A DNA stretch of 35,843 nucleotides from Fidelibacterota bacterium (GTDB taxonomy: Bacteria; Fidelibacterota; Marinisomatia; SCGC-AAA003-L08; GCA-002704045), in assembly GCA_002704045.1 (NCBI GenBank), contig PAFF01000079.1, forward strand, positions 6,785-42,627. The letters run 5' to 3'. Below, piece by piece: positions 25,316 through 35,070 of this stretch. The notes beneath the pieces were generated by a model that was not told where the DNA came from, did not search any database, and saw nothing but the letters and a program-made list of their open reading frames with translations. Position numbers and translations under genes: made by a program. Within the stretch, counting starts at the first letter, position 1; each line of letters opens with the position of its first letter.

Positions 25316-25398
25316 GCCGAGGTGGTGAAATTGGTAGACACGCCAGATTTAGGATCTGGTGCTCTTTGGGCGTGAAGGTTCGATTCCTTTCCTCGGTA
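25316..25398 (+). tRNA. tRNA-Leu (anticodon UAG), class II with a long variable arm
   Basis: The acceptor stem is GCCGAGG/CCTCGGT, with a G1-U72 wobble. The anticodon stem is CCAGA/TCTGG with loop TTTAGGA, giving anticodon TAG. The variable arm is GCTC-TTT-GGGC, the T arm is GAAGG-TTCGATT-CCTTT and the discriminator is A. CCA is not encoded. Confidence 0.9.
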
Positions 25399-25408
25399 CA
25401 TCGTTCAT

Positions 25409-25437
25409 CCCCCCTCTTAATCGAGGGGGTTTTTTTT
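25409..25437 (+). terminator. rho-independent terminator after tRNA-Leu
   Basis: The hairpin CCCCCTC/GAGGGGG has loop TTAATC and is followed by T8. Confidence 0.7.
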
Positions 25438-25452
25438 ATCCCTTGAGTTATA

Positions 25453-25480
25453 TTGATCAATCATTTTAAATCATTAAATA
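25453..25480 (+). promoter_or_regulatory. candidate sigma70-like promoter inside the repeat (TTGATC-N16-TAAATA), conserved in both copies
   Basis: TTGATC lies at 25453-25458 and TAAATA at 25475-25480. The identical sequence recurs at 34853-34880. It would give a leader of about 190 nt upstream of the 25678 gene. Pattern match only. Confidence 0.3.
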
Positions 25481-33500: not shown

Positions 33501-34420
33501 TCGATAATAATTGGATCTATTTTTCAGGAATGTACTTTAAAATTTCTGATGAATTAAATACAAATTTCAATTTAATACAATCACAAAATATTATAAATGA
33601 TATAATTTGGTCAAATACAGATAATGAGCATTTAATTAATTTTCATTTAGAGTGGTTCAATATTAATTCGTTCAATAGTCAATTTTATTCTGATTATCAA
33701 ATTGATTTTAGTTCTGAATCTATATTTGAAGTTGATAATGTAATTCCTGGTTCAGGATGTGAAGATGATGAAATATTTTATGTTCCTTTTGAAATAACAA
33801 ATTTAAATACAAATAAAAAAGTTGGTATTGTTGCTTTTGACAAAGGTTCTTGTAACTGTGGATCAGGTAGTGATCCAGATGTATTTGGATATAAAAATTG
33901 TCAGTGGGATCATAATGAAAAAATTGTCTTAGTTGATACTTTAAATACGATTGAAAATCCTTATGGAAATCATTATAATACATTTAATTTATATATAGAT
34001 TGGAATTATGATAGTTTAAATACATATCCTTGGAATAATAATGATAATGTTATAATTAAACCAAAATATAGACTTCACAATGGTGATAATTGGATTTTAG
34101 ATATGAGTCAATTTAATAACAGTCTATCAATTGATAAATTTCATTCTAGTATCCCAAAAAATTTCAATTTGGGTAAACCTTATCCAAATCCATTTAATCC
34201 AGTTACTAAAATTGATTTCACCTTACCAGAATTAGCTTATGTTAGTATTAATATTTATAATATAAAAGGTAGATTGATAGAAAAATTGCAAGATGGTATT
34301 TTGAATGGAGGTAAGTATCAAATACATTGGAATGCAAATAATTATTCATCAGGAATTTATTTTGTACAAATGGTATCAAACAATTATAAAGAAACTCATA
34401 AATTAGTTTTAATAAAATAA
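30536..34420 (+). CDS. large secreted protein (1294 aa) with an FN3-like domain and a T9SS C-terminal sorting domain; function unknown
   Basis: The ORF has a signal peptide. A central FN3-like segment reads PKKPQLSLTSGVGSITLNWDNN...FEGYKIYRSIDNGNTWG. It ends in a C-terminal Por-type CTD. No catalytic motif was recognised in the N-terminal ~680 aa. Confidence 0.8.
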   Translation: MIFYKIIILVSFLNALPLEVLKQKNEFTNHTINNLPESPLLDRAKGLSIIGNAQTAISNYGNMINGYDHHPGGLWNGNSYIPSLSIMSSIPGYKYSHNYDWELHETGLFTIWKSIEAGQNWIRLGDSVFVDFVFNVENDKGDLGERYGSHIDFNNAYQWSLEIDIEGSLVLYITTESELENPNYHYSKMGLVYPWAKRPMFIGRDESVLHDYYDTGPDAIPWNEDDNYKYYGANTNESWFTRFPESSNSDWQPKSNALGSSHNSNSIITYGDIFGYTNFVNSSDSYPILAHSSFEETWPLAYNDELSEYEHFWPGMWADEFDSSLIGCNGSPTDNDCWIESPGNFKSFNDIYMEIDDRWAHQGNYVNHVDEYQNTGYPLGLTIQTQVHSYPLYPFNNSIFFSSKIINESGDYFNEDGIFVESMIMPDGSKLNGGDGFNYERMFLGLYFDVDALWADINGSMSNHTNADDMMGYYRDIPENGENLLSFAYIYDYDGISNSINNTAYTALVILDTPRLPVHEESLDLDLDGSPDVQPGEKLGMTSWHWFDWYNRPGVRMRESNSNCCDGTASRPSSENREEIQYKILAGDTVNISDNEKLWFFHTSQPQNENISDINPHFDSIEGIMQSDFWNQGAEGLDCTVMVGSGPFSIEVGEEVSFSYAIVFAENFEDLIENVKNTQNLYDSHFKLFSSPKKPQLSLTSGVGSITLNWDNNAEESIDFLANINDFEGYKIYRSIDNGNTWGNPIYDSEGMQMGWEPYQQFDLTYEEDYIKFGRDISGYDPVNSWINLGNNTGITNNFIDYDVEPINEYCYYLTSYDKGYINSELNNIEFGDWETLYDVGISSMESVRSNIMCLSPDTLEIYNPPTENLFIPSLLNIGTPEIYFIPDDEQEIIENMNEQKRYKIEILADQNNNDYNYSLPINNTINPRIYIWEVDYNNLPIETQYFECNFDEIYYYDKLPGSDQIEVDSLNNVALYELPIYLIQNQNIDNNWIYFSGMYFKISDELNTNFNLIQSQNIINDIIWSNTDNEHLINFHLEWFNINSFNSQFYSDYQIDFSSESIFEVDNVIPGSGCEDDEIFYVPFEITNLNTNKKVGIVAFDKGSCNCGSGSDPDVFGYKNCQWDHNEKIVLVDTLNTIENPYGNHYNTFNLYIDWNYDSLNTYPWNNNDNVIIKPKYRLHNGDNWILDMSQFNNSLSIDKFHSSIPKNFNLGKPYPNPFNPVTKIDFTLPELAYVSINIYNIKGRLIEKLQDGILNGGKYQIHWNANNYSSGIYFVQMVSNNYKETHKLVLIK
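34163..34417 (+). other. T9SS (Por) C-terminal sorting domain
   Basis: The last 85 aa are FNLGKPYPNPFNPVTKIDFTLP...VSINIYNIKGRLIEKL...KYQIHWNA...SSGIYFVQMVSNNYKETHKLVLIK. They are colinear with the CTD of the giant protein. Confidence 0.8.
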
Positions 34421-34737
34421 AGTTTTTTTGAATTATCTACCTCAATCATTCTGCTAAAATTAAGCTATCTATTATTCAGAGATTTTCTACAATATAAGCA
34501 TATATGTAAACTTGGTAGGTTTGCAGGTCTTAATCCAAAGATAACGAATACTAAAAAGAGAACCAGAATCATAGGAGTTATAGATGATAATTCCTCGGTT
34601 GAACCATCCCCCCAAGATGTAAAAAAGCTATACGCCCCTTACCCCTTAATTGAATCACAACAAATCTAGGTGTAGGACACAAAATGAAGGACACGCTAAC
34701 AAAAAATGAGGCATTTATAAAGGAGGAATTGACTTAA

Positions 34738-34798
34738 ACACGCCAGATTTAGGATCTGGTGCTCTTTGGGCGTGAAGGTTCGATTCCTTTCCTCGGTA
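34738..34798 (+). pseudogene. 3' fragment of tRNA-Leu(UAG), covering the D-arm 3' side to the discriminator; the 5' 22 nt are missing
   Basis: It is identical over 61 nt to 25338-25398. The sequence upstream of 34738 (gacttaa) does not match the tRNA 5' part, so no acceptor stem can form. Confidence 0.9.
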
Positions 34799-35070
34799 CA
34801 TCGTTCATCCCCGCTCATAATCGAGGGGGTTTTTTTTATCCCATGAGTTATATTGATCAATCATTTTAAATCATTAAATAGTGCTTTGAAGGGAACATTC
34901 TGTAGAGAACGCTTTTTGCTCCATATACTGCATATATAGATTTTATTTAGGTAGAATATTAATATCGTTATAAGAGGGACGCTATCCACACAATGGGAAG
35001 AAATGGGAAGTATTTTTCTACTATCACGACTATAGCATCCTATCTACGAATCTCCTTTTTTATTATATAG
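34738..35070 (+). repeat. right copy of the imperfect direct repeat of about 335 bp
   Basis: See the left copy, 25338..25672. In this copy the terminator stem has a mismatch (CCCCGCTC versus CCCCCCTC). Confidence 0.9.

Follow-up and report, generated by a model that had tools for sequence, protein, structure and literature searches.

A 35,843-nucleotide stretch of DNA from a Fidelibacterota bacterium (GenBank assembly GCA_002704045.1, contig PAFF01000079.1, positions 6,785 to 42,627 of the forward strand; referred to here as the window) carries a tRNA-Leu(UAG) gene that is followed downstream by a direct repeat of its own 3' end. The two copies of the repeat are probably the attachment-site scars, attL and attR, of an old tyrosine-integrase element that inserted into the tRNA-Leu(UAG) gene of a marine, strongly A+T-rich SAR406 bacterium. 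The bracketed DNA, island 1, is missing from closely related strains, and the 3' end of a decayed integrase gene lies beside the displaced tRNA fragment. Positions are those of the window unless a related contig (L numbers) is named.

The tRNA-Leu gene and its direct repeat

The intact tRNA-Leu(UAG) gene (Table 1) has its anticodon TAG at 25350-25352, in an anticodon stem-loop at 25343-25359. Its last 61 nt recur at 34738-34798 without a single difference, as an earlier note on this DNA had read from the letters. This displaced fragment corresponds to tRNA positions 23-83, up to the discriminator, and starts 5 nt before the anticodon stem. Neither ARAGORN nor Rfam calls a tRNA there. The fragment is identical in the contigs L010, L011 and L014.

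A repeat finder, BLAST and MAFFT place the full direct repeat at 25335-25669 and 34735-35068, 9400 nt from start to start, with 89.9% identity over 336 columns. This is far beyond the chance expectation for 36 kb at 28% G+C. The formal alignment bears out the earlier description of some 270 bp of further similarity with compensating indels, ending at about 25672/35070. The tRNA part (25338-25398) is 100% identical (0/61 differences), the next segment (25399-25476) is 96.2% identical (3/78 differences) and the last (25477-25672) is 83.7% identical (32/196 differences, including four single-base indels that nearly cancel). The longest perfect run between the copies, 25338-25412, is 75 nt. The left copy of the tRNA terminator folds with -14.7 kcal/mol (z -3.8). 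The mismatch noticed earlier in the right-hand stem is real; that copy has a bulged stem of -10.7 kcal/mol and is not called in the terminator scan. Permissive BLAST found no further tRNA fragments or att copies hidden within island 1, and the exact 27-mer at the tRNA 3' end has no match among GTDB species genomes or IMG/VR.

Empty and occupied sites

The contigs L001, L002, L013 and L097 have the identical gene order of an outer membrane protein (OMP) gene followed by tRNA-Leu(UAG). L002 is 100% identical to window 24023-25476, which spans the OMP gene, the tRNA and 78 nt more, and then switches to an unrelated sequence, flank B. L097, found through P0151, a full-length homolog of the gene after flank B, is an empty site; it reads giant type IX secretion system (T9SS) protein, OMP, tRNA-Leu, the 139-nt segment 25338-25476 (block C), flank B, a 354-aa gene, hemL and hemB. 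L097 and L013 agree at 98.6% of positions over 5.6 kb ending with block C, and from there L097 continues into flank B and L013 into arm A2 (the right-hand copy of the remaining repeat) and cargo. L014 represents the far end of an array, with a long integrase relic, a tRNA fragment, block C and flank B. All of L002, L097 and L014 switch to flank B exactly after the window-equivalent position 25476. L098, whose protein shares 74% identity with the L002 query (the 354-aa gene), retains the linkage to hemL. The island is absent from closely related strains with its breakpoint at the repeat edge, as seen in L002 and in L097 against L013.

Block C is present at each occupied and empty site and thus would be common to the chromosomal (attB) and element (attP) attachment sites. 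The empty sites have flank B in place of arm A, which argues that arm A is not a duplicated chromosomal flank. On this comparison of contigs, the 335-nt repeat is a composite of the 139-nt identity block C and the ~195-nt arm A, which is tied to the island DNA that follows. The earlier note was right that the repeat is longer than an att core and runs beyond the tRNA, but the extra length appears to be this block plus an element-borne arm, not captured chromosomal flank. The left arm, A1, holds an imperfect tandem 14-mer (CTGAAGGCACCTAT x2), where its differences from A2 cluster. Arm A2 follows the intact tRNA in L013, with 96.6-97.6% identity.

The earlier note had also named the lack of any empty-site variant as a result that would speak against an island, and had expected an empty site to join the tRNA directly to the gene at 35117. 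Empty sites do exist (L002, L097), but what follows the tRNA in them is block C, flank B, the 354-aa gene, hemL and hemB. A tRNA directly followed by the 35117 gene was seen in 0 of the 4 contigs that have this gene; the fragment lies upstream in three and the fourth starts inside arm A2. The nearest named Marinimicrobia metagenome-assembled genomes (MAGs; ClpP 77-82% identical) have the order tig, clpP, clpX, tRNA-Leu(UAG), cspA; their tRNA sequence differs, and the repeats are missing. They were rejected as empty sites because they are too distant.

Flank B (L002 1467-2000; L097 5619-6150; L014 reverse strand 1-507) contains a ~45-nt sequence (gaatgaa..aaatacttattattt) twice in direct orientation, and also a stem-loop with a clean intrinsic terminator (gaccctctcgaatgagggttttttt) behind it. 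It may contain a small RNA gene downstream of tRNA-Leu; Rfam at E <= 1 (L002) gave a sub-threshold, chance-level match only.

An integrase relic beside the tRNA fragment

Island 1 had been described as lacking an integrase open reading frame (ORF). No intact ORF is present, but a pseudogene stub is. It starts 27 nt past the stop of the 1294-aa T9SS gene, ends 68 nt ahead of the tRNA fragment and reads toward it. A 2-nt deletion shifts its frame, and no catalytic residues are found within the window copy. L009 and L011 show the 1294-aa T9SS gene followed by the identical relic junction. The stub was recognized with P0001, an uninterrupted 136-aa variant of the integrase on another contig that was found by a word-index search; P0001 residues 71-136 match 34469-34666 at 91% identity (tblastn, E 1e-37). 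P0001 in turn matches three PHROG integrase families (phrog_216, 9e-09; phrog_1, 3e-07; the third, 9e-06) and, weakly, Pfam Phage_integrase (E 0.0035, profile positions 110-169 of 172).

In related contigs the relic is longer and retains the R-H...G-H...Y catalytic region. L010 is 99% identical to window 34448-35843 with different DNA upstream; its relic of ~140 codons has an in-frame stop (ORF ..LYSYRHTYGITRVLSTGDIYLVA*EIGHADISTTYKNYAKIK..) and ends ~70 nt before the tRNA fragment. An exhaustive search returned distant full-length relatives of P0001, 350-410 aa, that match at the C-terminal catalytic region with 37-48% identity over ~65 aa, and each of the 7 that were scanned has a Phage_integrase and/or SAM-like integrase domain. 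No close full-length homolog of P0001 was found in ~15 billion proteins; the word-index search gave the 136-aa fragment only, and the high-identity matches of the exhaustive search in 1.84 billion representative proteins were short fragments only. tblastn with seven full-length integrases detected nothing in the window beyond the relic itself. The integrase copies are dead in every locus seen. Patterns from the tRNA 3' end, arm A and the relic are all absent from IMG/VR. An apparent "island without integrase" may be explained by looking for such pseudogene stubs beside the tRNA fragment.

The P arm, the spacer that separates the integrase stop from the tRNA fragment, occurs as two haplotypes, that of the window and L010 and that of L011 and L014, with 20/68 differences, while the adjoining fragment has 0/61. 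Including the 3' tip of the relic (34646-34737; L011, L014), the haplotypes are ~29% divergent and differ by a 12-nt indel, and the sequence on either side is identical or nearly so. The pattern suggests that there were two related source elements, or that array units have undergone conversion with one another.

A probable second island in tandem

The right-hand repeat probably opens a second island of ~6.1 kb in tandem with the first, and the 35117 gene appears to be the start of this island and not chromosomal flank. The second unit is proposed from overlapping contigs only. L012 is 100% identical to the last 998 nt of the window (34846-35843) and continues through the 106-aa, 548-aa Big_1-like and 64-aa genes. 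It overlaps the head of L010 with its last 1603 nt at 100% identity, and beyond this overlap L010 has an 825-aa T9SS gene on the minus strand, the long relic of the integrase and one more tRNA fragment. What comes next after the ~6.1 kb is flank B in L014 and another A2 + 106-aa unit in L010. Because the reconstruction crosses samples and long repeats, the array is only probable. The cargo of units 1 and 2 is unrelated, and the 106-aa protein has no family match. Arms A1 and A2 would be the homologous left arms of two related elements, which would explain why the similarity runs past block C. An over-long att repeat can thus signal tandem related elements.

In L010 (4586-5983 and 5585-9460) the unit after island 2 consists of the fragment, block C, arm A2, the 106-aa gene and a 1292+-aa paralog of the 548-aa gene. 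This further unit matches the window without difference for 1.2 kb and at ~94% beyond; it is a third unit of the array, or else a misjoin induced by repeats.

Proposed origin and present-day variation

We infer that the island has an integrase-mediated origin, with a crossover in the anticodon region of the tRNA gene. The attP of the element would consist of the 3' end of the integrase gene, the 68-nt P arm, a 139-nt copy of the target (block C) and the ~195-nt arm A. Recombination within the tRNA part would regenerate a complete tRNA and its terminator from element DNA (25316-25476, then arm A1) and would move the former 3' part to the far end (34738-34876), directly behind the integrase gene. 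Newer insertions would push older ones away from the tRNA. The integrase has since decayed, to a frameshifted stub in the window and to ~140 codons elsewhere. Homologous recombination and gene conversion among these repeated modules would now lead to gain, loss and swapping of cassettes, both inside a strain and from one strain to another. Each cargo type is found with each P-arm haplotype (four pairings, in the window, L011, L010 and L014), and L011 carries an undamaged left-type block C at the right-hand position. Since no intact integrase was found in the protein libraries searched, the present cassette variation probably arises by homologous recombination between modules. Of the three options in the earlier note, an old island that lost its integrase is the closest; the island, the bracket of tRNA and fragment, and the empty sites all stand, but the 3' end of the integrase survives.

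Several points weigh against this origin. The Pfam score of the relic is 17.6 bits, under the cut-off of 27.1, and the window relic, being without catalytic residues, is recognizable only through related contigs. No intact integrase, excisionase or circular form was found, and integration by this element family is presumed. Arm A is assumed to act as an integrase arm. The cargo is indistinguishable from the host in composition. The array reconstruction joins contigs of different samples through long repeats, and the third unit of L010, identical to the window over 1.2 kb, could be a repeat-induced misjoin within L010. Finally, the two halves of island 1 may be non-adjacent in some genomes, possibly in all.

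A further idea, rather unlikely in our estimate, is that the dead att modules (fragment, 139-nt block, arm A and stub) are kept uniform by conversion or selection as portable homology handles. Hints in this direction are the 61-nt fragment that is identical in all copies beside a P arm that is 29% different, and the four cargo/P-arm combinations. If true, integrase-free cassette exchange would shuffle genes for surface and T9SS-secreted proteins across the SAR406 population.

Alternative explanations

An arrival of the island from a close relative through homologous recombination, in which block C and arm A served as homology arms and this lineage saw no site-specific integration, was among the explanations weighed and has a smaller but appreciable likelihood. 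The mosaic of cargo, P-arm haplotype and block type across contigs, the native-like composition and the failure of the protein searches to find a live integrase all agree with it. It explains the spread of the island, however, and not its origin; a fragment that abuts an integrase 3' end needs a site-specific event somewhere in the clade. It therefore overlaps with the last step of the integrase-mediated origin rather than replacing that origin. The other alternative without integration in the lineage, namely that the tRNA-Leu locus underwent segmental duplication or unequal crossing-over in which no mobile element took part and that the genes in between are native, is highly improbable, even though the cargo has native composition, the repeat is long (~335 nt), and units 2 and 3 of L010 share 1.2 kb identical to the window in the manner of duplication or conversion. 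A segmental duplication should have DNA of the tRNA locus upstream of the second copy and chromosomal flank downstream, and this is not what is found. The 5' part of the tRNA is replaced by the 3' end of a tyrosine integrase and not by the tRNA upstream flank, the empty sites have flank B after block C with no arm A, and the cargo of units 1 and 2 is unrelated. The duplication option of the earlier note is set aside on these grounds, though unequal crossing-over may have reshaped the array.

Another concern is the continuity of the 9.4-kb block. Contigs of three other assemblies end or start at 30190-30244 (L001, L007 and L095 end at 30240, L096 ends at 30244 and L009 starts at 30190), and the continuity thus rests on the window's own assembly. 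Among them, TARA scaffold_680 ends at 30240 and scaffold_20307 starts at 30190, giving a 51-nt overlap, and ERZ27286360 k119_1082190 ends at 30244. The 55-nt zone is probably a strain-variable junction, or a repeat outside the sampled loci; the zone falls at the lipoprotein gene's 3' end and shares sequence with the end of an ORF on the reverse strand. An assembly chimera, in which the bracket joins two island variants or strains through this short shared sequence and no single genome has the exact block, would account for these contig ends. It would also fit sample ERZ27286360, which has the left half of island 1 (L096) with a different right cargo (L010) and in which the 1294-aa protein was not found. 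Such a chimera is nevertheless unlikely. The window itself spans 30190-30244, the two TARA scaffolds come from one sample and overlap perfectly, and none of the fetched loci shows the 55-nt sequence a second time. Independent assemblies reproduce the two repeat junctions, the left in L001 and L002 and the right in L009 and L011, so that the second copy of the repeat is not the assembly duplication that the earlier note had cautioned about, and the att scars, the relic and the island nature hold regardless. It is still less probable that arm A has a function of its own, as a cis element such as a promoter or leader of the first cassette gene or as a small RNA, and that selection keeps it similar. 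Both copies in the window lie directly upstream of gene starts (25678 and 35117), the arm is G+C-richer than its surroundings as judged by eye only, and it is 96.6-97.6% conserved where the flanking genes of the lineage are ~87% identical. In L013, however, the arm is cut at +296 and a different gene follows. A known RNA was rejected, as Rfam (at the gathering threshold for the window, and at E <= 1 for L009, with the right junction and arm A2, and for L002, with flank B) gave tRNAs only and no family in the arms. A structured RNA was rejected for want of covariation support; the consensus fold of the four copies has a positive covariation term and one compensatory pair only. A sigma-70 promoter was rejected as well, sigma-70-like sites being no more frequent than in shuffled sequence in a scan that covers the sigma-70 type.

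Relation to known tRNA-associated islands

A tRNA gene (tDNA) with a same-orientation 3' fragment is the signature used by Islander to map islands, and the anticodon-centred attP class makes up about half of the mapped islands (PMC4383910). Here the intact tRNA at 25316-25399 is followed on the same strand by a 3' fragment that reaches the tRNA 3' end, and the distance of 9,400 bp falls within 2-200 kb. As in Islander-type islands, intact gene and fragment bracket the island, the tRNA 3' part would be supplied by the element, the integrase lies beside the att site, and the fragment extends from the anticodon stem-loop to the 3' end. Its start 5 nt before the anticodon stem is compatible with the anticodon-centred class. 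A second unit with its own fragment and integrase remnant probably follows, which would match Islander-type tandem arrays. Presence/absence polymorphism has its breakpoint at the att repeat (L097 against L013, L002 against the window). Unlike such islands, this one has an integrase stub, an identity block of 139 nt that extends 78 nt past the tRNA and includes the terminator, native composition and no mobility genes. Atypical composition is a frequent though not obligatory mark of islands and is not seen here. Because the integrase is only the frameshifted stub at 34448-34669, the locus would fail the integrase filter of Islander.

In Prochlorococcus, successive integrations push older elements inward and leave fragmented integrases and partial tRNAs (bioRxiv 10.1101/2020.12.28.424599). 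The same traits are present here in a streamlined marine host, in tRNA-adjacent DNA with partial tRNAs, probable inward pushing, fragmented integrases and presence/absence among strains. The differences are the phylum, SAR406, and a cargo of cell-envelope and T9SS-secreted proteins. The hallmark of these tycheposons, an integration module with a helicase/primase or a module like those of phage-inducible chromosomal islands, was not found. With no replication/packaging module and no intact recombinase, membership in the tycheposons is not supported. In Alteromonas, additive islands are targeted to tRNAs (PMC4119200). These share with the present locus a conserved tRNA as the cassette target, a strain-variable length and a tRNA-Leu 3' direct repeat at the end (52 nt in Alteromonas); they are known from complete cultured genomes and often have live integrases, whereas the present locus is known from metagenome contigs with relics only.

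Structural, replication and regulatory genes of a prophage or phage satellite were likewise not found. The locus resembles the Haemophilus influenzae phage HP1 in that attP/attB identity goes well past a minimal core and integration restores the tRNA gene with downstream sequence. HP1 itself is intact and temperate, its integrase is active, and its attP shares ~180 bp with a tRNA operon; here nothing is phage-like except the integrase stub.

With no intact integrase and no tycheposon or phage modules, the locus is best placed as a decayed member of the general tDNA-island class, in no named family. It is an ordinary kind of feature and reveals no new mechanism. Its less usual features are the 139-nt block with the tRNA terminator, the absence of a live integrase across public data and the apparent concerted evolution of the dead att modules. 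The locus suggests that once the recombinase is dead, the att modules left behind continue, through homologous recombination, to drive the gain and loss of cassettes. The locus is a population-level example of variation in the envelope and secreted repertoire of the streamlined, uncultured SAR406/Marinimicrobia, and its tRNA-Leu hotspot extends the pattern of Prochlorococcus and Alteromonas to another phylum.

Cargo and composition of island 1

Table 1. Features of the tRNA-Leu locus, island 1 and the start of the putative island 2 (window positions)
Feature	Position	Strand	Evidence or remark
Intact tRNA-Leu(UAG)	25316-25399	+	ARAGORN; Rfam RF00005, 57.3 bits (Rfam end 25398)
Left block C (tRNA 3' 61 nt, intrinsic terminator, ~40 nt spacer)	25338-25476	+	3/139 differences from right copy
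Intrinsic terminator of tRNA, left	25410-25437	+	Perfect 7-bp G+C stem, then T8; scan hit 25410-25429
Arm A1, putative element-borne left arm (P' side) of island 1	25477-25672	+	83.7% identical to A2
Patatin-like phospholipase, lipoprotein-type signal peptide	25678-26553	+	Pfam PF01734, 1.8e-12
MORN-repeat protein with two FKBP domains	26632-28203	+	FKBP_C 1.1e-74, MORN_2 1.1e-19; NCBIfam FKBP/BamJ-like
Three small ORFs (39, 50, 105/120 aa)	28241-28862	-	ORF list; called genes in L001, L096
185-aa signal-peptide protein and 160-aa lipoprotein	29145-30194	+	ORFs; identical proteins in L096, another sample
Assembly break zone	30190-30244	.	Contigs of three other assemblies end or start
1294-aa secreted protein, T9SS C-terminal sorting domain	30536-34420	+	Pfam PF18962, 4.5e-11; TIGR04183
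Tyrosine-integrase relic, last ~70 codons, post-catalytic tail only	34448-34669	+	tblastn and alignment with L010
P arm, spacer from integrase stop to tRNA fragment	34670-34737	+	Two population haplotypes
Displaced tRNA-Leu 3' fragment	34738-34798	+	61/61 identical to 25338-25398
Right block C	34738-34876	+	Terminator weakened, ~34809-34837
Arm A2, putative left arm of island 2	34877-35070	+	After fragment in window, L009, L010, L011
First gene of putative island 2, 106-aa signal-peptide protein	35117-35437	+	ORF; identical protein on L009-L012
Second gene of putative island 2, start only (cut by window end)	35445-35843	+	548-aa Big_1-like surface protein in L011/L012

The cargo labels of the earlier note hold for the patatin, MORN-FKBP and T9SS proteins. 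The 185-aa putative OMP and the 160-aa lipoprotein match no Pfam or NCBIfam family, and for the three small ORFs on the reverse strand, Pfam, PHROG and NCBIfam gave no family. The MORN-FKBP gene is called from 26644 (519 aa) in other assemblies. The integrase matches of P0001 are the only confident ones in PHROG; two small ORFs have marginal matches (E 0.002-0.005) to families of unknown function. Scans of all cargo ORFs against Pfam, PHROG and NCBIfam found no replication, packaging or regulatory genes. Between the lipoprotein and T9SS genes, a very basic 65-aa ORF (..KKRRWLDRRKELYRWNKR..) lies antisense at 30191-30388 on the minus strand. It has no match in Pfam, PHROG or NCBIfam and no record as a called gene, and could be a relic of something else.

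A foreign composition of the island was considered and rejected. G+C at third codon positions is 0.14-0.20 inside the island and 0.12-0.23 outside, and the tetranucleotide distance of the island, 0.177, lies within the range of equally long native segments, 0.116-0.216. Both measures agree with the earlier impression of a compositionally native cargo, which suggests exchange within the lineage or long residence.

Wider surroundings in the window

In exact-protein look-ups the window proteins were found in marine metagenomes, mostly TARA. The closest relatives of ClpP (77-82%) are nearly all from Candidatus Neomarinimicrobiota/Marinimicrobia (SAR406) MAGs. Compared with L020 and L022, window 14577-25251 has no clpX between clpP and tRNA-Leu, unlike the distant Marinimicrobia MAGs. 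The interval of ~10 kb between clpP and the tRNA encodes a cohesin/dockerin protein, a 2360-aa T9SS protein and the OMP. With this ~10 kb interval and the absence of clpX, the side upstream of the tRNA is also lineage-specific.

Three adjacent lipoprotein genes at 9919-13163 have near-identical 5' ends and signal peptides, with Cys-rich repeats (..C.WHADD..CED..). They match no Pfam family, their G+C of 0.36-0.40 is above that of their neighbours, and similar terminators lie at 10508-10537 and 13189-13218. The 2360-aa T9SS protein (17391-24473) contains several long internal repeat families with 300-nt units and many Cys/Asp modules of the 'CGVCDGDG' type. Such a module is seen again at 35513-35648, within the first large gene of the putative island 2.

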